A DNA stretch of 64,000 bases, from NCBI GenBank assembly GCA_963696805.1, contig CAVOLF010000006.1:167023-231022 (forward strand). The letters are read 5' to 3'. The notes below the pieces were generated by a model, which worked only from the letters and a program-made list of their open reading frames with translations, had not been told where the DNA came from and made no database searches. This document shows, one piece after another, positions 2,765-58,177 of the stretch (its first letter is position 1; every line of letters begins with the position of its first letter). The position numbers were made by a program, and so were the translations under genes. Origin of the DNA: an uncultured Rikenellaceae bacterium. GTDB taxonomy: Bacteria; Bacteroidota; Bacteroidia; Bacteroidales; VadinHA17.

Positions 2765-4294
2765 TTAAAGGTACATGCTGAAACTGTTGAACTGCGTTTC
2801 ACGAAAAGCCCTGCCTATATTCATCAGAATATCTCCGGCTATAACTGACTCCTCCGAGTGTATTCTCAGGGCCACGTCGCCTGCCACCCCGTGAAGGTAT
2901 ACTCCGGCAACTGCTGCATCGGCAGGGCCATAACCCTGTGCCAGCAATGAGGCGATCATTCCTGTCAGCACGTCGCCGCTGCCACCGGTGGCCATGCCCG
3001 GGTTGCCCGTGCTGTTGAAATAGACCTCGCCTCCGGGCAGGGCAATGGAGGTATGGGCTCCCTTTACAACCACGATGCAATTATGCCTGGCAGCGAACTC
3101 CCGCTGCTCTTCCATAAGCCTGAAGTCACTGCTGTCTGTCGCGGCCAGACGGCGGAACTCTCCGGGATGAGGTGTCAGCACTGTACCAGGTGGAATCAGA
3201 TCAAGCAGTTCCCTGTTCCGGGCCATGATGTTAAGTGCATCAGCATCAAGCACAAGTGGTATGGTGGCGGTCTCAAGCAAGGTCCTCAGCACCCCGGCAG
3301 TGTCAGGGTCAGTGCCCAGTCCCGGGCCTACTCCTGCCGCATCAAACGGAGTCAGGTCAGGCATCACGGTCACGTTGCCTGTTCCCGGATCCGGTGAGAC
3401 CATAGCCTCCGGCAGTGATGCCTGCAGAGCCATCACGGCGGAGGTGGGAGTATGCACGGTCACCAGTCCGGCACCGCTGCGCAGAGCGGCCCCGGCAGCC
3501 AGTGTGGCGGCCCCGGCCTTGCCGTAACTGCCGGCAATGATCAGGGCATGACCAAAAATGCCCTTGTGATCAAATTTCTTCCTCTTTTGAAGGAGCGGCC
3601 TGACATTCTCTCTCATTACATAATGGTATGGCGAGGGCATGGAGGCGATGGTCGCGGCATGCAGGCCGATGTCAATCACCTCCCATCTGCCTGCCTGATC
3701 TTCATTCCCGGCAAACATGAAGGCAATTTTGGGAAACTGGAATGTGATGGTCTGTGAAGCCCTGACCATCCTGTCGCGGTCAACACCGTTGTTGTCCTCG
3801 CAGAAAAGCCCGGAGGGGACATCGACTGAAACAACATATGCACCCGTCTGATTGATCTTTTTGATGACCTCAGCAGCCACACCCGCCGGAGCCTTGCTGA
3901 GCCCCGTTCCGAAAATGGCGTCAATGATCACCTCATCACGGCCGATGACGGGAAAGAGCCCGGGATCGGCCAGGGTGAGCGGCGATACGCCCGCTCTCTC
4001 AAGCCGGTCGGCATTCAACCTGAATTCGCTGCTGTGGGCAGAACCTGTCTCTACAATGAATACGCGCACAGGATGGCCTTCATCATACAACAGCCTGGCA
4101 ATCACCAGCCCGTCACCACCGTTGTTACCGGGGCCGGCAAACACGTTGACCTTCTTTTCAGGCGGCAGGGTGTCCTTCAGCCTCTCAACAAACGTTGTGG
4201 CAGCACGCTCCATCAGCCCTGCCGGCGTTACAGGCTCAAGACGGACAGTGGCTGCATCAATCTCCCTTATCTCTGCAGATGTGAAAATCTTCAT
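2765..4294 (-). CDS. nnr: bifunctional NAD(P)H-hydrate epimerase / ADP-dependent (S)-NAD(P)H-hydrate dehydratase
   Basis: N-terminal YjeF_N motif VFAGPGNNGGDGLVIARLL and C-terminal kinase-fold motif GGSGDVLTGMIASLLAQG. I chose the start at MKIFTSAEIREID (ATG at 4294), 15 codons inside the longest ORF. Confidence 0.9.
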   Translation of the reverse strand: MKIFTSAEIREIDAATVRLEPVTPAGLMERAATTFVERLKDTLPPEKKVNVFAGPGNNGGDGLVIARLLYDEGHPVRVFIVETGSAHSSEFRLNADRLERAGVSPLTLADPGLFPVIGRDEVIIDAIFGTGLSKAPAGVAAEVIKKINQTGAYVVSVDVPSGLFCEDNNGVDRDRMVRASQTITFQFPKIAFMFAGNEDQAGRWEVIDIGLHAATIASMPSPYHYVMRENVRPLLQKRKKFDHKGIFGHALIIAGSYGKAGAATLAAGAALRSGAGLVTVHTPTSAVMALQASLPEAMVSPDPGTGNVTVMPDLTPFDAAGVGPGLGTDPDTAGVLRTLLETATIPLVLDADALNIMARNRELLDLIPPGTVLTPHPGEFRRLAATDSSDFRLMEEQREFAARHNCIVVVKGAHTSIALPGGEVYFNSTGNPGMATGGSGDVLTGMIASLLAQGYGPADAAVAGVYLHGVAGDVALRIHSEESVIAGDILMNIGRAFRETQFNSFSMYL

Positions 4295-15225: not shown

Positions 15226-15874
15226 ATGGCGCGCTACATTCATAACCTTATCGCAAAGGGTGAAGGGATGAATCTTGACTTTAAATACTGTATCTCTGAC
15301 CCTCGTAAGATAGCAAGGACCCTGTCTGCATTTTCCAACAGTGCGGGAGGCAAACTGCTTATCGGTGTCAGGGATAACGGTTCCCTGGCCGGGGTTAGTT
15401 CCGACGAGGAATTTTACATGATCGATGCGGCTGCCAGGCTCTACTGTGATCCGGAAGTGGTTGTCGGAACAAGAAACCATACCATAAACGGTAAGAACAT
15501 TCTGGAGGTTGATGTCCCGAGACGCGGAAAGATACCCGTGAAGGCAAAGGATGAGGACGGAAGATGGAAGGCCTACTTCAGGCATAATGACCAGAACTTC
15601 ATGGCTGACAGGGTGATCATGCAGGTATGGCGCCGCAGCAGCAACTCAAGAGGCCTCCTGTTAAGGTTTGATCGAAAAGGAGAACCTGCTGCTTAACTAT
15701 CTGCGCGGAGGAGAGAAAATAACAGTGAACGGATTTCGTGCCCTTGCCGGCATCAATGCAAAAACAGCGGAAAAGATACTGAGTGACTTCATCCTGTGCG
15801 GGATAATCATCTACGAGGCGAGCGAGAAAGGTATCTTTTACCGTCTTTCTGCTGATTTCACTCCGGCACCGTAA
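15226..15874 (+). pseudogene. AlbA_2 (Schlafen/AlbA-like) putative DNA-binding protein split by one frameshift
   Basis: The 156-aa ORF (EGMNLDFKYCISDPRKIARTLSAFSNSAGGKLLIGVRDNGSLAGV) continues in the +1 frame as EKENLLLNYLRGGEKITVNGF (a wHTH-like tail). The junction is near 15665-15675 (gat[c]gaaaag). Confidence 0.6.
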
Positions 15875-15876
15875 GA

Positions 15877-18800
15877 CTATTCTATTTTGAATCCTACAAC
15901 TAGGATGTCATCTGTCTGGGGGGCCGATCCTATCCAGCTGTCGAGGCGTTCCCTGAGCATCTCCTCCTGCTTGCTCATCGGGTAATTCTGAACGTCAAGT
16001 ATCAGTTTCCTGAAGTTCTTTTTCATGAATTTCTTCCCGGTAACACCGCTGAACTGGTCTGCATAGCCGTCAGTAAAGAGGTAGTATGAGGTATCCTTCT
16101 CCAGGTTCCATTCATATTGCAGGTATTCCTGGCTGGCCCTGGGCTGAACCCCGTCAGGCAGCCTGTCACCGTAAATAACCTCAAGAAGGTACTTGCCGTC
16201 AGCCAGGATGCCTGTGTCATCATCCATTTCAACCATCTTCCATTTTGCTGTCTCTTCATCACTCATCTCCCTCACCCTGTAACACTGGGAGCCGACGCCG
16301 GAGAATTCCACAGAACCACTGTTGCGGTCTATGGCCAGCAGCGCAATGTTGATGGATACCGCCATCGACTCCGGAATGCCATGTTTCTGCTGTGCAGTGA
16401 TCATTTTCCTCTGGAATTCACTGATGATGACAGAGGTCTTCAATGTTACCTGCCTGTTGCCTATCTCTTCCAGGAACGATAGTCCCATGAGGGTCGCCAG
16501 CGCTGAATTCACTCCATGACCGGTGCAATCACCAACCGCAATGAAAAACTTATCCCCTTTTCGTGTCATCCAGTAGAAATCACCACTCACCCGGTCTTTC
16601 GGTCTGTTGATTATAAAACTGTTGCGAAGGGCATCAATCAGGATCTTTTCGGAGGGCATGAGCGCCCGCTGCACATACCCGGCATACTGCACGAGGGCGG
16701 CAATCTCTTCCCTGGCTTTGCCGGCAGCTTCCGAACGCTGCTTCATCAGACTCTCAAGTCGCTGGTTCCTGACTTTAAGCATTCCGGCAAAATACCTTAC
16801 TACGTATAATATCAAACCAGCAGCCGCCATGATGTATAGTACCAGTGCAACCATGGATGTGTACCACGGCTTCCGGACCGAAAAGGAATAGGTTGTTTCC
16901 TCACTTTCGAGTCCCGTGATGGTCTTTGCCTTCAGCCTGAAGGTATAGTCTCCTGCAGGAAGGTTCGTATAATCCCTGTAAGTGCGCTTCTCCCACCTTG
17001 ACCAGTCGTCATCGAGCCCATCCAGCCTGTGACGGTATTCGGTCTTGGCCTCGCCCACATAGGAGGTGGTTGTCCACCTTAGGGAAATACTGTTCCTGCT
17101 GTGGCGAAGTGATACATCAGGAGTGCCGGGTTGAATGGCTGACGGAATTCTGCTCCCCCCAGAAGAGAGACTGTAAAAGGAGCCATCCATAAGCGCAGTG
17201 GCATTGCCGGAGGTAATGCGGGTAAAGAAAGTACTGAAGGTGCCATAGCTGAAACCAAGCTTCGATTTGTCAATGATAAAAATACTCCGCCCCTTGGTTA
17301 TCCATATATTCCCGTCGATATATGAAATGCCTGTAGTGGCAATGTCGGGAAGAAAATCGAACTGTCTCCTGAATACCACATGGCCCTGACTCGTTGTGGA
17401 CACCAGGGCGTCAAAATTCCGGGTATCAAACCCTGTCAGGAATATATCGCCATCAGGTGTTTTAAAAAGATTACTTATAAGTATATTGTCAAAGGTGTTT
17501 CCAATCAGGTCATGATCCTTTTCGAAAATGTCACTCTCAACGTTATATCGCCAGATGCCCCTTCCGGAGCAGACATAGAGCCTGCCATTGATGGTGAAGA
17601 TATTGTTCAGGGTGTCACAGTCAATACCCCGTTTTTTATCATACCGGATGAATGCCGTGTCCGTTGCATCACATTGCATGCGCATGAGTGATGATGGCAA
17701 AGATGTAAGTATCCACCACTCTTTCCCTCCCGTATGTTCTATCTCATGCACCCTGCCTTTCAGTTCCCCCCTGCCGCATGTGTTGATTACTTTCCACTCC
17801 TCACTGGCATACTTAATGGTTCTTAACATCCCGTCATCCGCTCCGGCAAGCAATACAGTAGAATCATTTACGGCTGATCTGATGGCTGTCAGATGTACTC
17901 TGCTAAGAACATGAGTGACATAGCCGTCATTGTCAGTCTGCCAGAGTCCGTCGGAGGCAGCTGCCATCAGAACATTTCCTTCCGGCAGGTGTGTGCTGAG
18001 GATATCATAGATCATTGCAGCAGGTTCCTCCATCTTTCTGAACCGGACAACCCCGGAATTGTCAACCTTTCTTTTATACAGACCATGTTCAGTGCTTACG
18101 AAGACAGAGTCTTCAAGCGCCGTTACGCCGGAAATGATTGATCCTATTCCGGATGCGCTTCCAAACTCGTACGCCGGAAGTGAAATATATGCCCTGTTGA
18201 TGAAGCCTCTTGTGCAGAACCATAGCTGGGAGCTTGAGGCATAATCACAATACATCGATGTCACCGAGGACTCCCTTATTGAGGTGGTCTCGTCAGAGAT
18301 ATGCTGCAACAGCCTGCCCTCATGGTTGAAGATCAGGACACCTCCCCTTTCTGACAATCCGGCTGCTATATTCCCGCCTGGCAGTAGGGCTACAGCTGTC
18401 AGAGGACCTTTTCTCAGCCTGTTGTTGTCAGCCCTGCTCAGAAACTGTGTATTAAGCACTCCGGATCTGTGGTTGAACAACACCAGGCCTCCCTCCTCAG
18501 AAGCAACCAGGATGTTATCATTATCGTACCGCAGAAGCCCTGCAAAACTTACCATCCTGATCTTTTCTCCTCCAGGCAGCCTGAATATCTGGCCCTCCCT
18601 GTACTCAAAGAGCCCCTCCCTGTCATCTGCCAGAATAGGCCTGGCATTGATGATCAGCATCCTGCCGACATTCTTCAGGCCATATTCCCGTTCCATGTCT
18701 GTTACTGAAACGGAATCTGTGGCGATGTCCAGGAGATAAAGCCTCCTGCCGTCGCTGAAGAATACCGTGTTGCTGTCAGAAGCTATTGATAATATTGGCC

Positions 18801-23064: not shown

Positions 23065-23068
23065 TTAT

Positions 23069-23151
23069 GAATTAGGAATTTAGAATTAAGAATTGATAAT
23101 CAGTCTCTTAGACTGCTGACTGAAGACTGAATATGGACCTTCAGACCTAAG
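23069..23151. repeat. heptamer word arrays: GAATTAG/GAATTTA/GAATTAA/GAATTGA (23069-23096), GACTGCT/GACTGAA x2 (23111-23131), GACCTTCAGACC (23136-23147)
   Basis: Read directly from the sequence. Occupies the 96-nt spacer between the C25 peptidase stop and the HD gene start. Confidence 0.8.
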
Positions 23152-23160
23152 ATAGTCATT

Positions 23161-23745
23161 ATGGTAAGCATCAAACCAACCCGTAAAGAAGCCCTGGAGC
23201 TTTTCAGAAAATATAACAAGTCGGACAGCCTGTACAAGCATGCGTTGTCCGTGGAAGCCGTAATGAGATACATGGCCCGCAAGCACAGTGAAGATGAGGA
23301 GATGTGGGGCGTGATAGGCCTTATTCACGATCTCGATTACGAGATGTACCCTGACCAGCACTGCACCATGACCGAAAAAATAATGAGGGAAGAGGGCTGG
23401 CCTGAAGAGTACATCAGGGCCGTAATAAGCCACGGCTACGGCATCTGCTCCGACACTGAACCTCAGACACTGCTTGAAAAAACACTCTTCGCCATCGACG
23501 AGCTGACCGGACTGGTCACTACAAGTGCCCTGGTCAGACCGTCACGCAGCGTGCTTGACATGGAGGCCCGTTCAGTGCGCAAGAAATGGACCGATAAAAG
23601 ATTTGCCGCAGGTGTCGACCGTAGTGTAATTGAACAGGGCGCCGCCCGCCTGGGCGTTGACCTGAATGACCTGATAGCAGACACCATAGCGGGCATGCGT
23701 GAAGCAGCAGACGAAATAGGCCTGAGAGGAACACCCCAGCTGTAG
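23161..23745 (+). CDS. HD/HDIG-domain metal-dependent phosphohydrolase
   Basis: 194 aa, with HALSVEAVMRYMA ... GLIHDLDYE (the H...HD motif pattern). Confidence 0.8.
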   Translation: MVSIKPTRKEALELFRKYNKSDSLYKHALSVEAVMRYMARKHSEDEEMWGVIGLIHDLDYEMYPDQHCTMTEKIMREEGWPEEYIRAVISHGYGICSDTEPQTLLEKTLFAIDELTGLVTTSALVRPSRSVLDMEARSVRKKWTDKRFAAGVDRSVIEQGAARLGVDLNDLIADTIAGMREAADEIGLRGTPQL

Positions 23746-23750
23746 AATTT

Positions 23751-23813
23751 TCGATTGCCGATGTGCGATTGCCGATTATCGGATCACCCATTCGCAAATC
23801 GCAAATCGCAAAT
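23751..23813. repeat. heptamer/14-mer arrays: CGATTGCCGAT x2 (period 14) and CGCAAAT x3 (23793-23813)
   Basis: Read directly from the sequence, immediately 3' of the HD gene stop and abutting the terminator hairpin. Confidence 0.8.
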
Positions 23814-23850
23814 AAAAAGGGCGTCCTGATGATTACCAGGCGCCCTTTTT
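23814..23850. terminator. bidirectional rho-independent terminator
   Basis: A5-GGGCG(T)CCTG-loop-CAGGCGCCC-T5, between the convergent genes ending at 23745 (+) and 23871 (-). Confidence 0.7.
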
Positions 23851-23870
23851 AGTATCAAATGCCGTTCGTA

Positions 23871-28947: not shown

Positions 28948-29946
28948 ATGAAGCTTTGGGAAAAACATGAAAATGATGACAAGCTGAAATGTCTTCTCTG
29001 CCCCCATTCGTGCCTGATATCCCCGGGCGGAAGAGGAGTGTGCGGCGTGAGAGAGAATCGTGGCGGTGAAGTGTTGCCGGTCACATATGGTGTCATTTCA
29101 GGCTTTGCCCTCGACCCGATAGAGAAGAAACCGCTGTATCATTTCTTCCCGGGCAGTTCCATATTGTCAGTGGGATCATATGGATGCAACCTTAAATGCG
29201 ACTTTTGCCAGAATTTCCACATTTCACAAGATGTTCACCCCGGCAGTTCACGGCATATGTCACCGGAGGAGCTTGTCAGACAGGCCCTAACGGCTCCGGG
29301 TAACAGCGGCCTGGCCTACACCTACAATGAACCGGTGATCTGGTTTGAATATGTCAATGACTGTGCAAGCCTGGCAGCTGCTGAGGGTCTTCATAACGTG
29401 ATGGTCACCAACGGGTACGTTAACGGTGATCCGCTTGCTGAACTGATCAAGGTCATTGATGCATTCAACATCGACCTGAAAGCCTTCAGCAATGAATTTT
29501 ACAGACGGTACGCTGGAGCCACGCTCGGACCCGTGCTGGAGGCTATAAAAATGGTTGCATCCTCAGGAAGGCATCTCGAGATAACAACCCTCATCATCCC
29601 GGGCCTGAACGACTCGGAAGATGAGATAAGGCGGGAAGCTGAATGGATTGCGTTGAACGCCGGCAGACGCGTGCCCCTGCACCTGAGCCGTTATTTCCCC
29701 ATGTACAGGAGGAGCAGCCCTCCCACCCCTGCGGAAACAATACTGAGACTGAAAGAGATCGCGAATGAATATCTTGATTTTGTTTATACAGGTAACCTGG
29801 CGGGAACAGAATCGGGCAGCGACACCCTGTGCCCGTCATGTCACTCTGTGATTGTAAGCAGAGCGGGTTATAATACTACGGTGACGGGCCTCTCGGACGA
29901 CGGCCGGTGTATGAATTGCAATGCGGAAATAATGAGATGGGTGTAA
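28948..29946 (+). CDS. amrS: AmmeMemoRadiSam-system radical SAM enzyme (PFL-activase-like)
   Basis: N-terminal Cys cluster CLLCPHSCLISPGGRGVCGVR. Radical-SAM CX3CX2C motif (GCNLKCDFCQN). Length and layout match the family. Confidence 0.8.
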   Translation: MKLWEKHENDDKLKCLLCPHSCLISPGGRGVCGVRENRGGEVLPVTYGVISGFALDPIEKKPLYHFFPGSSILSVGSYGCNLKCDFCQNFHISQDVHPGSSRHMSPEELVRQALTAPGNSGLAYTYNEPVIWFEYVNDCASLAAAEGLHNVMVTNGYVNGDPLAELIKVIDAFNIDLKAFSNEFYRRYAGATLGPVLEAIKMVASSGRHLEITTLIIPGLNDSEDEIRREAEWIALNAGRRVPLHLSRYFPMYRRSSPPTPAETILRLKEIANEYLDFVYTGNLAGTESGSDTLCPSCHSVIVSRAGYNTTVTGLSDDGRCMNCNAEIMRWV

Positions 29947-29949
29947 GAG

Positions 29950-30250
29950 TCGAAAGTATGTAAAGTCAAAATTCTGAAGGCCTTAGGTCTGAAGGTCAGA
30001 GGTCTGAGTTCTGAGCTCGAAGGTCAGAGGTCTGAGGGATTTGCGAATTGCGATTTGCGAATTTTGCATAATCGACAATCGAAAATCTGAAATCGAAAAT
30101 TCCTCTATTGCCTCCCCTGCAATCTGGCTGCTTAGCTAAAATGGCCCGCCAGCTGGCGGATCACTTCTTAACGCTCGCCCCTCTACTGCCTAAAATGACT
30201 GCCGACTGAGGACTGGTTTTGACTGCCGACTGAAGACTGAGGACTGTCGA
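29950..30250. repeat. 301-nt mosaic of heptamer word arrays
   Basis: Blocks read directly: AAGTC block 29949-29971, (G)GTCTGA(A/G) block 29973-30037, TTGCGAA/TTGCGAT block 30039-30066, ATCGAAA block 30070-30100, GACTGNN x7 at 30197-30251, and a central 14-bp palindrome CCGCCAGCTGGCGG at 30146-30159. The mosaic fills the whole convergent spacer. Confidence 0.85.
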
Positions 30251-30538
30251 CTAACCTTTAGAGATCTTACTGAGCCGTTCGAAATAGCCGTCTACCTTTT
30301 CAAGGAGGTCTTTCTGCAAGGTAGTGTAGTAGGCCTTGACCAGTGCCGGATTGTCTTTTCCATCAGGGTTGTTGACCCTGTCAATGAAATCATTGCGCAT
30401 ACTCACTGCCTCTTCTATCAGATCCTGTACTTCTTTTTTCTTTGGGCCTTCATGGAGGCTTGTGAACATGAAGCAGTCGGAGATAAGTTCAAAAAAGAGA
30501 TAGTCTATATCCTTCTTAAGGTTTTTTATACTGGCCAT
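30251..30538 (-). CDS. small hypothetical protein (95 aa, helical, charged)
   Basis: ORF directly downstream of the class IV aminotransferase on the same strand. A CAAAGATA (TAnnTTTG on the minus strand) box lies at 30555-30562. No family recognised. Confidence 0.55.
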   Translation of the reverse strand: MASIKNLKKDIDYLFFELISDCFMFTSLHEGPKKKEVQDLIEEAVSMRNDFIDRVNNPDGKDNPALVKAYYTTLQKDLLEKVDGYFERLSKISKG

Positions 30539-30566
30539 TGATATTGCTTTTGTGCAAAGATAAATA

Positions 30567-31403
30567 TTAATCTTTGCTTTTACTCAACTTATAATTCCGG
30601 ATGCTCTCCCCGGCCAGACCGGCATATAACCGGCGAAGCCTTTCTGTAACAGGGTTGTAAGCCTCATACTGTTGTTTTTCAATGCAATTCACCGGCAGCA
30701 CCATCGGTGAAGTGCCGGTGATGAACACCGAAGTGAAATGAGCAATCTCAGATTCATCCACAGCCGCATACACCAGTTCAAGCCCCTCCTGCCTGATGAT
30801 ATCAGTGACATACCGGCGTGTTATTCCTGAAAGAACCATTTTATCAGGGGCCGTGTGAATTGCGCCATTGCCCGTGACAAAGAACACATTCGACCTGCTT
30901 CCCTCAGTGATTAAGCCATCATGGTTGACGAGCAGCGCCTCATAGGCCTTCTTCCTGGCCAGCGCTTCATTCACCGACAGACGAAGCCGGTTATTCAGAA
31001 GCTTAACCCCCGGATCAAACCGTTCTGCATGGTATAATATCAGCCTGACGCCCGTGGTGACCATCGCAGTATCAGGGTAAGAAGAGGGAATATAGCATAT
31101 ATGCAACGAATAGTCCTGCCCGGTGAAAGTAACCCTCACCCGCACATTTATCTCCGGGAACGACTGCAAGGCTACGAGAGCATCAAGACCCTCCCTGACC
31201 CGTGAAGAAATATCTCCGCCGCTTTCATATCTTGTTGATATGCCGTCACTCAGACGCTTCATGTGATCATCAAAGAAAAGAGGGATGCCCTCCCGGGTCC
31301 TGATCACCTCGTAAAAGGAGACCTCGCCGGAAACGATCTCATCATCATGATCAGCAGGTATGATGATGCCATCGAGATAATAATAATCACCGAAGCATTC
31401 CAT
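30567..31403 (-). CDS. aminotransferase class IV (fold-type IV PLP enzyme; ADC-lyase/BCAT/D-aminotransferase-like)
   Basis: 278 aa. EGSRSNVFFV and SGITRRYV motifs are typical of class IV aminotransferases. Confidence 0.8.
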   Translation of the reverse strand: MECFGDYYYLDGIIIPADHDDEIVSGEVSFYEVIRTREGIPLFFDDHMKRLSDGISTRYESGGDISSRVREGLDALVALQSFPEINVRVRVTFTGQDYSLHICYIPSSYPDTAMVTTGVRLILYHAERFDPGVKLLNNRLRLSVNEALARKKAYEALLVNHDGLITEGSRSNVFFVTGNGAIHTAPDKMVLSGITRRYVTDIIRQEGLELVYAAVDESEIAHFTSVFITGTSPMVLPVNCIEKQQYEAYNPVTERLRRLYAGLAGESIRNYKLSKSKD

Positions 31404-34859: not shown

Positions 34860-36912
34860 TCAATTAACCGGGAGAAATGAATATCTCTTCCCGTATTCCA
34901 TCATCTGCCCCAGGTAGTCAGAGCAATATTCAATCTTCACATCGATGATTTTTCCCGCTGCATCTGTTACCGTTGTCATCGAGGGATTTACGAATCCGCT
35001 GTAGGGGGCAATATCCAGCTTCGCGTACCGGGCCAGTATCTCACGGTGCAGATCCTGATCGATCTTCACCCCGTAATTTTCAATCAGATCTTTTCCAGCC
35101 ACGAAATCACCTTCCGACTTGATGCGCTGAACCTCTTTCAGCATCACGCCAAACAGCATCCGTAGCTTTTCGTAGTCAGTGATCGTCACATAGGTCTGGT
35201 CATCACTTTCCACCAGTCATGACATTGTCAGGTGCGCCCTTTTGATATACCCAGTGAGATATTGCCGAACGGCAGCGCATGTGGGCCTGTTCAATGTCCT
35301 TTCCGGGTGTTATCCGGACGATCTGCGTAAGTAGTCCGTTGCGGATGTAATTGTCATACTGTGCTTTTGCCGGTTTCAGAAGGGATCAGTCCAATTTCGG
35401 TCAGTTTGGGGTCCATCAGGAAATAAAGTGCGAAGAGATCTGCTCTCATCTCCTCAAGGGGAGAGGAGTAGTTCTTGAGGGCATTCGGATCAGTTCCCGG
35501 AGCCAGTTTGCCGCTGGCATGGCCAATGCATTCGTGAAGGTCGGTATGAAGAGCATCAGCGAGTGATCCGTGTTGTAGCCCGTTTTATCTCAGCCTCGTC
35601 AAAGGCAAATTCCTCCAGGAAGCCGCTGCCACGTGCCATATGTCCTTTGCATCGGTTATGTTTGCAAGGGTGACTGACTTCGACCCGGTTTCCGTCCTTA
35701 TCCAGTTGGAATTCGGAAGGTTTATCCCCAGCGGAGAGGCCGGATAACAGTCACCGCCGAGCATCGCCACGTTAATGACGCTGGCAGCAACGCCGGTGAC
35801 CTTCTCCTTGCGGTATTGCGGGGCAACAGGTGAGTTGTCCTCGAACCACTGCGCATTAGCGGTGATCAGTGCAGTGCGCTTTGATGCCTCAATGTCCTTG
35901 TAATCGACCACTGACTCCCAGGTGGCCTTCATGCCCAGCGGGTCACCGTAAGTCTCGATAAATCCATTGATATAGTCAACGGAGAGGTCAGTATTGCCTG
36001 CCCACACTACGTTGTACTCATCCCAGGTCTTCAGGTCACCTGTCTTGTAGTAGTCAATGAGCAGCCCAAGCTCGCTTCTTCTGGGTCTCGCTCAGCGCCA
36101 CTTCACGAGCCTTCTCAAGGTATGTGATGATGCGGTCGATGGCCTCTCCATAGAGCCCTCCGCTCCGGTAAGGTATCTCGGTCACCTTCCCGTCGACCTT
36201 AACCACCTTGGTGTTCAGTCCCCATGATACAGGGGTCGTGTCAGCTGGATCGGCCAGGGACCCGTAATAGTTTTCGACTTCCGCCTGGGTAACCCCCTCG
36301 TAGAAGTTGTTGGCCGAGGAGACGATCATGTCAGCTCCCTCTGTCTGATCAACGCCTTCTGGAGTATAGCTCCGGGTCAAAGAGCACCGGAGTTAGCATC
36401 GCAGTGAGATCATCGGCCGTCTCTTCCTCCCTGAGAGGAAGGAGCCCCGGGTCGGTATCGCTGACCAGGGCCGCAAAATAATCCCGTGAAAATCCCGGAA
36501 CGAACTTGTCACCGGAATAATGATGGTGTATGCCGTTGGCAAAGAAGACCCTTTTGGCATAGGTGATGAATGATTGATACTCTTCCGCCTCCCTGTCGCC
36601 GCCGTATGAGGCGATTATGGCCTCGATGGTCTTCCGTATGACAAGGTTATACCTGAAATTCTGGTCCCACAGTATGTCACGCCCGCAGAGGGCGGCCTCG
36701 GAGAGATAGTATATGAACTCCTTCTCACCTGCCGACAGCTGTTCAAACCCCGGCAGGCGATACCTGAGCACGCTGATATCTTCAAATCTGTCAACCTCAT
36801 ATGTAAATTCTTCATTCACGGCAGCCTTCCTGCCTGATTCCCCGCATGATGTAAAGAGTGCTATTCCCATAGACGCAAATGTGACTATTAATAAGATTTT
36901 CCTCATGACCAT
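34860..36912 (-). pseudogene. M49 dipeptidyl-peptidase III lipoprotein, broken by at least 6 frameshifts
   Basis: DPP3-like sequence runs through five listed ORFs or frames plus unlisted frames. N-terminus has lipobox LFTSC. The zinc motifs HECIGHASGK and EEMRADLFALY are intact at about 35440-35535. Frame changes lie near 36365, 36065, 35635, 35575, 35378 and 35220. The total span of 2053 nt equals a full-length gene. Confidence 0.8.
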
Positions 36913-38370: not shown

Positions 38371-38376
38371 AATCCA

Positions 38377-38578
38377 CAGTCTTCAGTCGGCAGTCGGCAG
38401 TCGGCGAAGTCCACTGTCTGAAGGTCTGAAGTCAAAAGGTCTTGCCGGCCTGCAGTCTAAAATTCTAATTATCAGTTCGCAAATCTTAATTCTTAATTTC
38501 ACTACTGCCTATAGTCTCTTGCCTATTGCCTGACTTGACTGAGGACTGAGGACTGAGGACTGAGGACTGTAGACTGAC
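38377..38578. repeat. mosaic of heptamer word arrays
   Basis: Blocks read directly: CAGTCTT/CAGTCGG x3 (38377-38404), GTCTGAAG x2 (38416-38431), AT-rich TTCTAAT/TCTTAAT words (38458-38500), TACTGCC/TATTGCC words (38501-38530), GACTGAG x4 + GACTGTA + GACTGAC (38537-38578). Lies in the convergent spacer between the genes ending at 38370 (+) and 38667 (-). Confidence 0.85.
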
Positions 38579-38666
38579 CTTCACAGGCCAAGCATGTCCA
38601 TGACCCCGTTGATGAAGGTCAGCGGATGTGCAGGGTGCCCGGAGATGGTATGAACAGGCTGTTCCG

Positions 38667-46047: not shown

Positions 46048-46136
46048 GTTTTAAGTTAATAGAAACAGTAGTTGCTCTAATTAACGCAAGAATAAGGCCA
46101 AAGGTTGCACCAAAATGAATAAATGGGATGCTTTTT

Positions 46137-46667
46137 CTACTTTTTTGCCAGTTCGGCGAAGATCACATCCTTCATTTTATCAAACTCTTCACGGTCGAAC
46201 AGGCGTGTCAGGAAGATGATCCTGCCTTTCCTGTCGATGATGACATTGCGGGTGACGCCGGCTTCCTTCTGTGCAAAGAGCCCGAAGATATCAGCTCCCG
46301 GGTCGAGGGCCAGCGGATAGGTAATCTTCATGTTATCCTTAAAGCTGAGCACCGTAGCCTCAGGTTCATCACGGTCAATGCCTATTACCACAAGCCCCTT
46401 TTCCTTGCCCGGGATCCATATTTCATCCTCAATGAATGGCATCTCCTTGCGGCACACCCCGCACCAGCTCGCTGTGAACTGCAACATGACAACCTCTCCG
46501 CGGAGATCTGCCAGGTTATAGGTCTCTCCGCCGGCTTCCCTGATGGTAAAATCCGGAGCAGTGTCGCCGACCTTCACCAGGTAACCGTGCTCATATACCT
46601 TCTGCTCCTGTGCGTATGCCATGCAGGTGATCATGGCAGCTGCCGCAAGTATTACAAGTTTTTTCAT
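46137..46667 (-). CDS. TlpA-family thiol:disulfide oxidoreductase (redoxin/AhpC-TSA fold)
   Basis: Signal peptide and the thioredoxin active site FTASWCGVCRKEMP. Confidence 0.85.
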   Translation of the reverse strand: MKKLVILAAAAMITCMAYAQEQKVYEHGYLVKVGDTAPDFTIREAGGETYNLADLRGEVVMLQFTASWCGVCRKEMPFIEDEIWIPGKEKGLVVIGIDRDEPEATVLSFKDNMKITYPLALDPGADIFGLFAQKEAGVTRNVIIDRKGRIIFLTRLFDREEFDKMKDVIFAELAKK

Positions 46668-46723
46668 TTCCCTTTTAGTTCATGGTCCAAAAATACAATT
46701 TTTGTTGTGTGGGGCGCAATTCA

Positions 46724-46925
46724 AAGTCATAAAGTCCGGAAAGTAGAAAGTCCGGAAAGTCATATAAGTCGAAAGTCTCGAAAGTCCGGAAAGTCAGTAA
46801 AGTCGAAAGTCTCGAAAGTCCGGAAAGTCAGTAAAATCGGATAATTGCAAATCGAAAATTTGAGCCTGCGACCAAGGAGCAGGATCAATCCCGCACACGC
46901 AGTGTCGGGACGAAAATCGCAAATT
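46724..46925. repeat. AAGTC-word array including a perfect 34-bp tandem duplication (46766-46799 and 46800-46833), then ATCGAAA/CGCAAAT words
   Basis: Read directly. AAGTC recurs at spacings of 7,9,9,9,7,9,9,9. The unit is AAGTCGAAAGTCTCGAAAGTCCGGAAAGTCAGTA x2. Located between the tandem minus-strand genes. Confidence 0.85.
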
Positions 46926-47324
46926 CTAATTATCCTCCTCCTTCAGAATCGAGAGGTAGCCGCTGCTCCGGCGGAGCTCAAGATACCCTCTCCCTGCCTC
47001 CCTGAAGCCATACTCAAAACAGTAGGCCCACCTTATTCCCTCCTGCGTTTCAACAAGGTGTGTAAAAAAGGTGAAGTTGTAACCCTGAGCAATGAGCGCA
47101 TCACGGTGAATACGCCCGTGTCCGTCGTCAAGAAGATCAGCCAGTATCTTGCGGTTACGCCTCAGCTGGGCATGAACGTTTCGTACATAGTTATTCTGAT
47201 CGCGGTTAATGCGGTTGTTGTAGTTATTCCGGCACTGATCGGAACAGAATTTCTTATCAGACCGGCCCAGGAGCCTGGCCCCGCAGTCAAGACATACTCT
47301 TTCCACAGCGTAATGTTTGATCAA
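46926..47324 (-). CDS. hypothetical zinc-ribbon protein
   Basis: 132-aa ORF with CLDCG...CSDQC (a four-Cys ribbon) at the N-terminus. No family name recognised. Confidence 0.6.
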   Translation of the reverse strand: MIKHYAVERVCLDCGARLLGRSDKKFCSDQCRNNYNNRINRDQNNYVRNVHAQLRRNRKILADLLDDGHGRIHRDALIAQGYNFTFFTHLVETQEGIRWAYCFEYGFREAGRGYLELRRSSGYLSILKEEDN

Positions 47325-47505
47325 ATTTACAAAATATTTTATTAAGCATAATCGCTTATCATATTGATTATGATAATTAAAAGCGTTTACAAACGGATAT
47401 AAACGACTGCTAACCGGATAGAAATGATTATCAACCGGATCATATGGTTAAGAGGGTGCACTTTTGTATCGTTAACAGCATTAATAACCTTAAATCAAAA
47501 AAATC

Positions 47506-55226: not shown

Positions 55227-56530
55227 TTACTCCCCAACCGGGACCGGCAATGAATAACTGAACAGGTCCTTTTCGGGCCAGCTTCCGACCCTCTGAATGA
55301 ATTTCGACATCATGTTGTCAATGTCGGAGGATAATGCAGGTCCGTTCCATGCACTCGTGTTAAGTAGTACCACCCATGCAGTGCCGTCAGGCATTCTTTT
55401 CATCATGGCGGATGAACCCGGGAATGAGCCAGTACGCCACCATACCCCGTTGGGCAGTGCCGCCCTCCATCCTACCGGTGCATAACCGTTCCGGATACTC
55501 GGTCATGAATTCTGATGCTGCTAGTAGAAATAATGTCTTTACAATTATCAAAGCCATCAACAGCCAGCAGAAGGCGCATAAGGTCAGGGGCTGTGGCAAT
55601 CCATGCACCGGCGGCTCCCAGGGTTTCAATATCATTTCCGCCGTAACTTGACATCATCATCTCACCGGTGCCGTATACGGAAGGTTTGGGTCTGGCATCG
55701 GAAACCTCGTAGTATGAGACTTCATAGGGCAGCTTTGCATCCGGCAGGTTATTACCGAGGGACATGTCAAATATACCAAGAGGATGCAGTATGTTTTCAA
55801 TGCAATATATCTTCATAACTCATGCCGGTCGCTGTTTCAATGACAAGGCCCAGAATGGCATAACCCAGATTGGAATATGACTGTCCGGCACCGGGAGTGA
55901 AATGCAAATTCTTGCTCAGTGCGAACCTCACTATTGTCTTTAGTATCAACCGGAAGCTGTACACCCATTGACTGTGCTATCACCTGTGGCATGAACATCT
56001 GATCACCGTATCGTTGTGTCCAGCCACCCTTATGTGCAAGAAGATGGCCTACAGTAATATCGAAAGCCCGTTTATCCTTTGGGATTTGAAAAAGCTGTGT
56101 CAGTGAGGATGCCTCCGGGGCCAAAAACCTGGTCATTGACTGAGAGTTTACCTTCTTCATGGAGTTTCATGATTGCAATTGCAGTCACCAATTTGGAGAT
56201 GCTTGCAATCCTGAAACGGTGAAATGGTTCGACTGGAACTGAATCTGAAAGGGAAGCGTATCCAAAGCCGCGTGCATATACCAGTTTTCCGTTACGTGCA
56301 ACTGCAATAGATGCCCCTTTAATGCTCCAGTTTTTCAGGAACCACTCAATGCCTTTTTCGGCACCCTCAAACATCTCGCTGTCAGTCAGTGTGTTATCAA
56401 TTCGAAGATTAGAAGGAGTATAGCTGCCGTTAATCATAACGACCCTCTCGGTGCCGACATGAGGGACAAAGAGGAAAAACAAAAACGTTCCGGTAATCAG
56501 AATTCGTAAGGATCTGTTGCGCAAATTCAT
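55227..56530 (-). pseudogene. serine hydrolase / beta-lactamase-family (class C-like) protein broken by at least 5 frameshifts
   Basis: Fragments chain in order: SxxK motif (IASISKLVT), ...DITVGHLLAHKGGW..., TIVRFALSKNLHFTPGAGQSYSNLGYAILG (unlisted frame), YCIENILHPLG..., FMTEYPE, NGYAPVGWRAALPNGVWWRTGSFPGSSAMMKRMPDGTAWVVLLN...VGE*. Frame changes lie near 56090, 55900, 55815, 55495 and 55470. Confidence 0.75.
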
Positions 56531-56672: not shown

Positions 56673-58177
56673 ATGGTCTCCCGACTAAAAAGACTATCCT
56701 TTTCGCTGCTGTTAATCCTTTGGGGATCGTCAGCCTATGCTCAGCCTGATTCACTGGCAATGGATTCTATACTCCAAAGGATCAGGACTATCCTTGAGGT
56801 TTACAATAAACAGGTTCTGTTCATTGACACATCAGACTATCTGACCGATGAATTTTATGCTGATGATATCAACTTACAGATAGCAGCCTCAAAAGGGGCC
56901 TGCAATGAAATATTAAGACTGTATGTGAAAGGGGCAGATGTAAATAATTTTGTCGGTAAAACAGCTACTCCTCTGCACTATGCAGTCTCCTCCGGCAGAA
57001 AGGAGGCTGTGCGAGATTCTCCTCTCTCCTTGGAGCACAGACAGATACGCATGACATGTACGGTAACACACCACTGGTATCGGCTGTAAGGGCGAATGAC
57101 CTCGAAATGGCAGAGTTGTTGATCAGGTTCGGGGCCTTGCCTGCCGGAACAGACAGGAACGGATCAACTCCGCTTCATCATGCCTCGGCACTCGGGTATT
57201 TTTATATTACCGACATGCTTCTATATTACGATGCTCAGACAGAATTAACTGATCTGGAGGGCAACACGCCACTGATGACCGGAGTGGGTTTCGGTTATTA
57301 TGATATTGCCGATATTCTGCTGCAATCCGGGGCAGACCCCAACGCCCCGGACAAAAGGGGGTTCACTCCGCTGATGACAGCCGCCCTTAATGGCGATACA
57401 GTGATGATGAGACTTCTCCTCAATGCCGGAGCCAACCTGTATGCGATAAACAATGAGGGCATTGACGCTCTTGGATTCGCCGTTTTATACGGACATAAAG
57501 AGGCGGCTGAATTCCTTCTTGATTCCGGCAACAGGTGGAGTTACAACGGCAGGGAGAACAGTGACCCGGTCAACCTTGCACGCAATTATGGCCGCGACGA
57601 ATTATTGCGGATGATGATCGAAAGGGGAATGGAGGGCAAAAAGGAATTTGCCCTTGAGGAATTTTCCGTTTCAGCCGGGGGGATGTTCACCAATCATTAC
57701 CCGATGGCCTTCGCATCAATTTCCCTGACCGAACCGGGATTGAAAGCAGGGATTACCGTCGGCGCTGCTTTTAACCCCTCAAGCCAGAGAATGCTGACAG
57801 AGGGTGGTGATGACATAATTTACCAGTACAAAGTCAAATCATCCGTTATCTATGCCGGAGTATTCAGGAAGTTCCTCCTAAACAACCCGGGAAGGGGATA
57901 TACATGGAACCTCGTCCCCTCATTAATGGCAGGCTACCGCTTCTACTCACTCTATGAGGGTACGAAAACCAAGCCTGATGATAAATTCTGCATAATGCCT
58001 GCTGCGGAGATCATGTGGAGCATGCGGCGCTTCACTCTCGGATCGGGTGTGGCATACCTGGGTTCTCCCTTCTATAAGGTGTCGCCTCTGTGGATCACCC
58101 TGAAGGCTTCATACACCCTTACACGCGATACAAAGAGCATCACAGGGAAAAGGATCAGATTATACAACTATGAGTAA
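56673..58177 (+). pseudogene. secreted ankyrin-repeat protein with beta-strand-rich C-terminal domain, interrupted by two 1-nt insertions
   Basis: Skipping C at 57012 and C at 57028 restores a perfect ANK junction (...TPLHYAVSSGRKEAV-EILLS-LGAQTDTHDMYGNTPL...). Signal peptide ends ...SSAYA-Q. At least 5 ANK repeats, then about 170 aa of alternating beta pattern. Confidence 0.7.

Follow-up and report, generated by a model that had tools for sequence, protein, structure and literature searches.

No other long simple repeats are as common in bacteria as heptanucleotide tandem arrays, for which we know of no accepted function or mechanism. What such arrays are, and what they may be built around, is the question raised by a 304-nt spacer (positions 29947-30250) in a 64,000-nt stretch of DNA from an uncultured Rikenellaceae bacterium (GCA_963696805.1, contig CAVOLF010000006.1, positions 167,023 to 231,022 of the forward strand), hereafter the window. 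According to the list of open reading frames (ORFs) and to Pfam, the spacer separates two convergent genes, one for a radical SAM enzyme on the plus strand and one, named ORF95, on the minus strand. An initial annotation saw in it five distinct arrays around a unique core and took this modular layout as the sign of a structured element, such as a protein-binding site or a small RNA, rather than slippage debris. The window was compared with contigs of relatives and metagenomes, numbered L001 to L072. The explanation that we favour, with a probability of about 60%, is that the spacer is a slippage-generated repeat mosaic, similar to the short tandemly repeated repetitive (STRR) sequences of cyanobacteria, which has built up around an older 3′ element of terminator-like form that we call element A.

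The arrays, both boxes and the palindrome listed in the initial annotation were all recovered in their places by reading the sequence and by Tandem Repeats Finder (TRF). The first repeat base comes immediately after the TAA stop codon of the radical SAM gene (29944-29946) and, on the plus strand to which all units refer, opens a run of degenerate AAGTC-type units (GAGTCGA, AAGTATGT and AAAGTCAA; 29947-29972), recognised from the sequence and from the orthologous spacers, among which L001 and L003 have (G/T)AAAGTC arrays in clean form at the matching position. Next comes a GGTCTGA(R)/GGTCAGA array with a period of 7 and 9.0 copies by TRF (29973-30037), which contains an internal 18-nt duplication at a spacing of 28 nt (4 × 7). 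Its roughly nine units compare with one or two in L001 and L003, which points to local expansion. The TTGCGAA/T array (30041-30063; 3.3 copies by TRF, or three to four units) and the AATCGAN array (30070-30100; 4.4 copies) precede the core, and the spacer closes with seven GACTGNN units (30197-30253; TRF and a 24-nt repeat spacing), arranged in two sets split by TTTT and followed by a partial unit, GACTA. The CTA that ends this array is the TAG stop codon of ORF95 (30251-30253), so that in the sense of the ORF95 mRNA the array reads NNCAGTC straight after the stop. At lag 7, the array blocks of the spacer have an identity of 0.62 and the core one of 0.30; other lags give 0.19-0.28.

The same periodicity marks the window as a whole. 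Nine strict period-7 self-similar segments were found in it, against 0.1 in shuffled sequences, and other periods between 4 and 12 gave 0-2. All nine are intergenic, and non-coding DNA makes up about 11% of the window. The spacers at 1516-1633, 23065-23160, 23746-23813, 38371-38577 and 46723-46839 share unit families with the one under study. The vocabulary consists of GACTG/CAGTC, CTAYTGC, AAGTC, GTCTGA, TTGCGA, AATCGA and AATTAAG and is common to 16 sequences, the window and 15 loci; GACTG/CAGTC (18 arrays in 206 kb of window and relatives), CTAYTGC, AATTAAG and TTGCGA are the commonest. Units are laid out as a 5-nt core followed by two variable bases, as in GACTG-NN and AAGTC-NN. The arrays lie in convergent, tandem and divergent spacers alike, extend right up to or into stop codons, and are confined to close relatives of the window, being absent where identity is 69% or less. 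In the spacer at 46723-46839, upstream of an AhpC/redoxin gene (46137-46667, minus strand), an AAAGTC-based array is built of 8-9-nt units with a higher-order period of 34 nt (3.5 copies). The ORFs called over it (46128-46844 and 46845-47345), which Pfam does not match, are probably spurious.

The comparison of orthologous spacers revealed how quickly the arrays change. The module order AAGTC, GTCTGA, TTGCGA, AATCGA, CTAYTGC is common to the window, L003 and L004 and is partly kept in L001; together with the recurrence of the core described below, this shared order speaks against the refutation that the initial annotation had foreseen, a lack of conservation of core or module order. At the same time, at least four different spacer mosaics occur among contigs that encode a 100% identical ORF95 protein. 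The right half of the spacer in L060 matches the window almost base for base, including the GACTGNN block, whereas its left half is wholly different and consists of CAGTCNN units, AATTAAG units, a unique stretch and nine GACTGNN units. This left half is of a type also seen in L061 and L021, whose spacers lack the core altogether. L060 and L061 differ by an indel of 14 nt (2 × 7). Another heptamer spacer, spacer A, is only 11 nt long in L001, and L005 is free of arrays altogether. Such indels in multiples of 7, the presence or absence of arrays in close relatives and the variety of mosaics beside an identical ORF95 are the behaviour of slippage products and do not support the initial contrast with slippage debris.

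Recombination appears to have contributed as well. To the right of the core's left box, the window agrees with L060 at 99.3% of positions, and in the radical SAM gene at 95.6% in one half and 90.4% in the other. This step in identity at the left box marks an allelic recombination breakpoint within the spacer. Both sequences have a box-core-box arrangement, and at the orthologous site of L003 and L004 there is one box only. Over the locus as a whole (28948-31403), the radical SAM gene is most similar to L001 in its 5′ half (93%) and to L060 in its 3′ half (95.6%), and ORF95 together with the adjoining aminotransferase gene is 99.3% identical to L060. Judged from these alignments, such mosaic ancestry indicates frequent homologous recombination in the population.

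The core, which the initial annotation described as unique, turned out to be one copy of a dispersed element of about 83 nt that is present at some 10 unrelated loci in relatives and metagenomes. In its long form, element A (30108-30190, plus strand) comprises a conserved left flank, CCCCTGCAATCTGGCTGC, a central hairpin and a conserved right flank, ACGCTCGCCCCTCTACTGCC, which ends in CTAYTGCC; it scores 105.6 bits with a covariance model, R1. The hairpin (30139-30166) was delimited by an inverted-repeat search and by alignments; its arms, AAATGGCCCGCCAG and CTGGCGGATCACTT, are 79% complementary, and the perfect 14-bp palindrome CCGCCAGCTGGCGG lies within it (30146-30159). The palindrome is real, although it is not rare: the window holds three perfect 14-mers and shuffled sequences 4.1, so that its significance lies in its recurrence elsewhere and not in its count in the window. 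The two near-duplicate boxes are likewise present and proved to be single units of the CTAYTGC family, which forms arrays elsewhere, in the window at 1609-1631 and 38502-38531. The right box, CCTCTACTGCC (30180-30190, plus strand), is in the copy alignment an integral 3′ end of element A. The left box, CCTCTATTGCC (30102-30112, plus strand), has a counterpart beside the core in 5 of 12 copies, those with the box-hairpin-box form; the other seven have GACTGNN or something else there.

Copies of element A were found in L003, L005, L060 and L064-L072. The dispersed ones come from one metagenome scan and one genome scan, and the number of independent loci is small. The pattern used for the metagenomes spans 28 positions, 26 of them fixed bases, so that chance matches are not expected; it identified nine further loci in differing gene contexts, five of them from a single metagenome. 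An occurrence in L003 (17792-17850), of CCCTGCAATCTGGCTGC with the palindrome, is non-syntenic. A model search with filters off gave a single copy in the 64-kb window, that at 30108-30190. The long form of about 83 nt is carried by the window, L060, L064, L065, L066, L068 and L072 and a short form of about 59 nt by L003, L067, L069 and L071, the L070 copy being aberrant. Model R1 was built from the long forms only (seven similar sequences) and recovers all copies found with the pattern, together with the L070 subfamily and a diverged copy in L005 (54 bits) that is syntenic with the one in the window. The L005 and L070 copies share the flanks and have different hairpins (AAAAATGCCT-CAC-AGGCATTTT and AAATCAGCCTG-CC-AGGCTGATTT). 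Copies at unrelated loci are identical in about 92% of alignment columns, and those of the same lineage are more alike one another than like the syntenic L005 copy.

The strongest evidence concerns the central hairpin. Among 15 copies, 8 of its 12 base pairs show compensatory changes and 96.5% of the alignment cells are paired, in an alignment fitted to the model; none of 500 shuffles reached this level, and slid controls gave 24-47%. Two putative outer helices, formed by the flanks, are invariant across copies. By this criterion of compensatory change, the hairpin of element A is the only part of the spacer for which the sequences offer direct evidence of selection. The initial annotation had proposed a covariance model and a search for further cores, and both bear out its idea of a modular layout with a partly structured, conserved element. 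The structure belongs to the core, however, and not to the 304 nt as one unit, since the whole spacer folds no better than shuffled sequences on either strand (z = -0.9 and -0.8). The idea of a single structured unit was dropped for that reason.

The shape of the hairpin is what suggests a role for element A. The family consensus has a lower stem AAAATGATCCGCCAG/CTGGCGGATCATTTT, and the best-preserved copy, that of L068 (GCTAAAATGATCCGCCAGCTGGCGGATCATTTTTTAACGC), has an A-tract, a GC-rich stem with these same arms and a T-tract (TTT). Copies of this type look like a two-way intrinsic terminator, and those of L005 and L070 are terminator-like too. A part in 3′-end formation or in insulation is, on this resemblance, the most likely role of element A.

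This role agrees with the position of element A relative to genes. Read from CCTGCAAT to CTAYTGCC, every main-family copy with a known neighbour has on its right an opposite-strand gene with its 3′ end toward the element (about nine independent loci, binomial p ~0.002). The left neighbour is mixed, on the plus strand in seven and on the minus strand in five of the 12 main-family copies. In 8 of the 13 tabulated copies, L005 included, a stop codon falls within the box or the element, or no more than 3 nt from the box. On the complementary strand, the CTA of CTAYTGCC reads TAG. At the studied locus, the element is anchored to the 3′ end of ORF95, and in L005 the box itself overlaps and supplies the ORF95 stop codon; in other copies, either the CTA of the box or the next CTAYTGC unit gives the opposite-strand gene its TAG. 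In the window and L060, a block of seven GACTGNN units (~60 nt) lies between element A and the ORF95 stop, whereas other copies abut the stop. Unrelated proteins in L065 (1972-3408), L066 (1254-2678) and L069 (1685-3748) end in GNRQ*/GSRQ* tails that are encoded by CTAYTGC array units. In these reading frames, the repeats have invaded coding 3′ ends, where they supply stop codons. The protein of L072 (8716-10599) has a longer tail, and the tails of this set derive either from CTAYTGC units or from element A itself.

A second structured component was found among the arrays themselves. The five distinct arrays of the initial annotation are all there, but TTGCGA and AATCGA are better described as the two arms of one recurring hairpin module, module T (30036-30104, plus strand; 66 bits with nhmmer). 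It is an A/T-rich hairpin with a TTGCGAN arm of three to four units (30038-30066), a short loop and an AATCGAN arm of four units (30067-30101). The arms are imperfect inverted repeats, and the module folds with -18.3 kcal/mol (z = -1.8). According to nhmmer, module T occupies three genomic sites in the clade. It is present at the orthologous site in L003 (11028-11089) and L004 (5830-5889), at a non-syntenic site of L003 (17725-17786) directly upstream of the element A copy there, and in reversed orientation at 23743-23813 of the window and in its L002 and L003 orthologues. A 25-nt segment, AATCGACAATCGAAAATCTGAAATC, is identical in the window, L003 and L004. At the reversed site (23746-23851), GATTGNC units, a loop and TCGCAAA units stand between a stop codon and a two-way terminator of textbook form (23814-23851); this spacer, spacer B, contains the canonical terminator alone in L001 and L004 and has the array module inserted beside it in the window, L002 and L003.

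A very long stem results when a convergent spacer has one unit family in both of its halves, in opposite orientations. The cleanest example of such inverted arrays is at 1516-1633 of the window, where a TAGGCAG array in the left half faces its reverse complement, CTAYTGC, in the right half. They form an almost unbroken stem of about 23-24 pairs that folds with -50.5 kcal/mol (z = -7.9 for the plus and -6.0 for the minus strand). In L061, the studied spacer reaches z = -7.1, and the spacer at 38371-38580 of the window has z = -2.2. The symmetry between left and right inverted arrays is lost in the studied spacer of the window.

Taken together, these findings fit the following history. The terminator-like 3′ element of ORF95, present in the array-free L005, would predate the arrays, and the heptamer arrays would have surrounded it later, in this clade. 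The arrays would arise and change size by slipped-strand mispairing, would be exchanged between strains and loci by homologous recombination, with concerted evolution, and would be largely dispensable filler. Inverted arrays add hairpins, module T in this spacer and giant stems in others. With the A-tract and T-tract that flank it in the best copies, the hairpin of element A would form or protect transcript 3′ ends, and it may separate the radical SAM and ORF95 transcripts as a two-way terminator or insulator, the copy in the window being probably partly decayed.

Several observations weigh against this reading. The window hairpin is not called by a simple terminator scan, and simple terminator and sigma-70 scans of 29500-30700 gave nothing in the spacer above shuffle expectation. 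Its lower stem is degraded relative to the consensus, with mismatches (ATGGCC against GATCAC), and both strands have weak T-tracts (CTTCTT and ATTTTAG); on the plus strand, the window copy folds no better than shuffled sequences (z = +0.3). In L065 and L072, the stem is lengthened by GCGG/CCGC and the U-tract is absent, so that some copies do not resemble a terminator. The invariance of the palindrome in the 12 main copies was imposed by the search pattern, the ORFs were called by a longest-ORF rule, and a diverged copy in L070 (5212-5282) has reversed polarity. A plain terminator does not explain why both flanks, about 20 nt on each side, are conserved. In 9 of 11 cases beside gene 3′ ends, GACTG-family arrays read CAGTC in the sense of the gene, on crude ORF calls (9 antisense against 2 sense GACTG), a bias that slippage alone does not predict. 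Moreover, the right arm of module T is identical at 33 of 33 positions between the window and L004, whereas the flanking gene is 71-73% identical in DNA and about 28% diverged in protein, which suggests constraint or ongoing homogenisation rather than neutral filler. Because filler plus a terminator accounts neither for the conserved flanks, nor for the perfect conservation of module T, nor for the sense bias of the arrays, two other explanations, mobile DNA and a binding platform, stay alive.

According to the first of these, element A, module T and perhaps the array blocks are selfish non-autonomous mobile DNA, of the type of REPINs (hairpin-forming doublets of repetitive extragenic palindromic, or REP, sequences) or miniature inverted-repeat transposable elements (MITEs), copied by an enzyme encoded elsewhere that recognises the hairpin and its flanks. 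This would readily explain the near-identical copies (~92% of columns) at unrelated loci, the conservation of both flanks outside the hairpin, the greater similarity among copies of one lineage than to the syntenic L005 copy, and the occurrence of filled and empty orthologous sites, with box-core-box in the window and L060 and a single box in L003 and L004; short-read contigs also break inside these spacers. No transposase or Y1/RAYT (REP-associated tyrosine transposase) domain was found, however, among the ~60 ORFs of the window, which is 64 kb of a multi-Mb genome, nor was there any copy of the element A core in the viral contigs searched. The ends of the element, CCTCCCCTGCAAT and CCCCTCTAYTGCC, do not form terminal inverted repeats, what looks like a flanking duplication varies among copies (left CTAYTGCC in five copies, GACTGNN or another sequence in seven), and the hairpins are single rather than inverted doublets. 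The strict position after stop codons would, in addition, require target specificity or selection. On balance, we regard mobile DNA as unlikely, though as an idea worth keeping. The second explanation starts from the arrays, whose 5-nt cores at 7-nt spacing would be a sense-specific binding platform, read on 3′ UTRs (untranslated regions) by an RNA-binding protein, for example an Rbp of Bacteroidota with an RNA recognition motif (RRM), or by a DNA-binding or nucleoid protein, the order of the arrays being a regulatory code. It draws on the maintenance of a 5-nt core plus two variable bases, on a vocabulary and order common to genomes down to 72% protein identity, on the excess of CAGTC in gene sense at 3′ ends (9 against 2) and on the perfectly conserved arm of module T. 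Binding of S1, Csp or CsrA to TAACTGA repeats has been proposed (MacGregor 2015, PMC4679880), and RbpB is a global binder of single-stranded RNA in B. thetaiotaomicron (PMC11697453). Contrary to this, arrays are missing at the orthologous sites of close relatives with no apparent compensation, entirely different array sets are swapped between strains with an identical flanking protein, spacers of every orientation carry them, and each of several unrelated core words would require a reader. A general platform of this kind is thus improbable in our view. A variant, itself speculative and improbable, is that the arrays and element A make up a lineage-specific 3′-end system. A dedicated RNA- or DNA-binding factor would read the stop-anchored hairpin elements and the sense-oriented arrays (CAGTCNN, GGCAGTA) that immediately follow stop codons, inverted arrays would give giant two-way insulator hairpins between convergent genes, and concerted evolution would homogenise the whole set. 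If true, it would provide the functional explanation for bacterial heptamer repeats that has been wanting since STRRs were described in 1990.

The small RNA of the initial annotation could be a stand-alone or 3′UTR-derived transcript, with CCCCTGCAATCTGGCTGC as single-stranded seed followed by the terminator hairpin. The best copies do combine a conserved 5′ stretch, a hairpin and a T-tract, several copies have G-U pairs on the plus orientation (about two independent events only), and multicopy small RNAs of seed and terminator, such as FopS, exist in Bacteroides (PMC11697453). Nevertheless, a search of 29900-30300 against Rfam 15 at E ≤ 10 returned a chance snoRNA match alone, and the whole window had no match at the gathering threshold. 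A pattern search found no TAnnTTTG box within 29947-30250, and no conserved sequence precedes the copies. The stretch downstream of the hairpin is conserved as strongly as the supposed seed, 5 of the 12 copies lack an upstream gene on the same strand, the polarity is fixed relative to the opposite-strand gene, and, as mentioned, the plus strand of the window copy shows no excess stability. A small RNA gene is accordingly very unlikely. Even less credit can be given to an assembly artefact or a chance low-complexity stretch. Repeats of this kind do break short-read assemblies, as shown by a run of Ns in spacer A of L003 and by Logan contigs that end in the studied spacer, and several genes in the window are fragmented. 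However, L060, an independent assembly, reproduces the right half almost base for base, the same modules occur in metagenome-assembled genomes (MAGs) and metagenomes of different projects, and nine arrays stand against 0.1 in shuffles. The independent assemblies effectively refute this reading.

The favoured reading, a slippage-generated mosaic around a terminator-like element, has its closest analogue in cyanobacteria, where Mazel et al. in 1990 and Jackman and Mulligan in 1995 are said to have described STRR heptanucleotides in ‘highly variable but structured’ intergenic regions of Anabaena/Nostoc. Common to both systems are tandem 7-nt units in several families per genome, a strictly intergenic location, hypervariability between close relatives, inverted arrays able to form intergenic stem-loops and no agreed function. 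The present arrays differ in belonging to Bacteroidales, in their unit sequences, in the stop-anchored hairpin element interleaved with them and in their sense bias at 3′ ends. None of the units in the TRF listing and a 5-mer census corresponds to CCCCAGT, TTGGTCA or CAACAGT (STRR1-3), nor to TAACTGA, which was not searched for directly, and the two systems are analogues rather than one family. Small dispersed repeats (SDRs) of 21-27 nt, embedded in heptamer arrays and with filled and empty sites between relatives, have reportedly been found in Nostoc punctiforme by Elhai et al. in 2008. Element A resembles them as a short structured dispersed repeat that often lies within tandem heptamers and has filled and empty sites; it is longer (50-83 nt) and comes from a different phylum. 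SDRs are not known to be anchored to stop codons.

Within and beyond the Bacteroidetes, TAACTGA and mixed heptamers have been reported from Beggiatoaceae, Cyanobacteria and five Bacteroidetes (MacGregor 2015, PMC4679880), and larger heptamer assemblages occupy spacers of Gramella, Aequorivita and Elizabethkingia and are absent from close relatives (PMC4679880). Those repeats share with the present ones their nature as intergenic direct repeats, the 7-nt indel steps, the contigs that end in repeats and the absence in close relatives. In contrast, the BOGUAY repeats are found just upstream of start codons, whereas the arrays here lie mostly in 3′ and convergent spacers, and neither a dispersed hairpin element nor a module grammar is described there (PMC4679880). 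Like REP sequences, bacterial interspersed mosaic elements (BIMEs) and REPINs (Bertels & Rainey 2011, PMC3116915), element A is a short dispersed extragenic palindrome, commonly at gene 3′ ends and in convergent spacers; it also shares with them the mosaic association with other short motifs, a consensus that is lineage-specific at conserved positions and proposed roles in termination and mRNA stabilisation (PMC3116915). Unlike REPs and REPINs, it has single hairpins, long, conserved, non-palindromic and asymmetric flanks, heptamer arrays as partners and an orientation fixed to the adjacent stop, and no RAYT was seen in the 64 kb. The inverted-doublet test for REPINs failed, the sole tandem pair of copies, in L070, being in direct orientation. 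This pair lies downstream of one gene, and in the same contig (from a different lineage, Ga0068713; 1890-1925 and 2000-2025) element A is flanked by a different heptamer family (GTTTGTTC and CGTTTGTT). Bidirectional Rho-independent terminators have the same GC-rich stem with an A-tract and a T-tract between convergent genes, a description that fits the consensus and the L005 and L070 copies; they differ from element A, which is multi-copy, has ~20 nt conserved on each side and, in the window, L065 and L072, lacks a proper U-tract. The FopS small RNA family of B. thetaiotaomicron (PMC11697453) is likewise multicopy, with a conserved single-stranded stretch and then a terminator hairpin, whereas element A is without a promoter or an Rfam match, is conserved past the hairpin and has its polarity tied to the opposite-strand gene. 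Two further candidates were tried and rejected. A MITE with the boxes as target-site duplications was discarded as the ends are not inverted repeats and the box is duplicated in 5 of the 12 copies only, and an integron attC site as the neighbours are syntenic housekeeping genes, often convergent, with no RYYYAAC...GTTRRRY cores visible in the alignment, which was inspected by eye only.

The combination of repeats and a terminator is known elsewhere in bacteria and is not catalogued for this Bacteroidales group. Its small vocabulary, positional ‘grammar’, polarity to 3′ ends and filled and empty orthologous sites make the clade a compact comparative system. Here, arrays are interleaved with at least two structured dispersed families that have no match in Rfam (the spacer at the relaxed threshold, the window at the gathering threshold), and one of these, the stop-anchored element A, donates stop codons and GSRQ tails to proteins. 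In practice, such spacers break short-read assemblies, create spurious ORFs and mark recombination breakpoints, which is relevant to MAG quality and strain typing. Should the hairpins act as transcription terminators, Bacteroidales genetics would gain useful parts from them.

The radical SAM gene (28948-29946, plus strand; PF04055, E = 1e-22) has orthologues with 86-89% protein identity in L001-L003, 91% in L021 and 72% in L004, and its closest relatives are uncultured Bacteroidales MAGs labelled Rikenellaceae or Rikenella. ORF95 (30251-30538, minus strand) encodes a conserved 95-aa protein with no Pfam match; it is conserved in L001-L007, identical on six contigs, and followed on the minus strand by a class IV aminotransferase gene. 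As further syntenic copies, L006 shows weak and uncertain similarity and L007 none. A pattern search placed TATCTTTG (30555-30562, minus strand), the match to TAnnTTTG nearest to the spacer, 17 nt upstream of the ORF95 start; we take this motif to be the Bacteroidetes -7 promoter element and presume that the match belongs to ORF95.

Broken or incomplete genes lie beside a heptamer spacer or elsewhere in the window. An 89-nt remnant of the 3′ end of a gene (38578-38666) stands beside a heptamer spacer; the gene is complete in L003 (17854-18606) and also occurs in L004, and its remainder is missing from the window. An M49 peptidase gene (34860-36912) is split into four ORFs, and its L003 orthologue (15620-17671) is intact with 683 aa. 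Beta-lactamase-family fragments (55472-56530) and a split ankyrin gene (56673-58177) look similar, and the M49, beta-lactamase and ankyrin cases are either real pseudogenes or the product of assembly indel errors. In the heptamer spacer A of L003 (~4077-4170), the run of Ns has duplicated flanks, and the Logan contigs of ERR12037370 reach about 150-170 nt into the studied spacer before they end.

Besides element A, another structured repeat with dispersed copies, element B, was noticed. It follows the pattern CCCGAC-N9-GTCGGGATTGAG..CTCC..GGAG..CTCAAAYTGCC, forms two adjacent hairpins and had no match in the Rfam search of the whole window at the gathering threshold. Element B lies at 46845-46915 of the window (minus strand) and in L004 (14483-14560), L064 (5494-5566), L065 (3475-3580, two in tandem), L066 (~1085-1170) and L071 (2920-2995). 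It sits amid heptamer arrays, and in L065 and L066 it is found directly beside element A.

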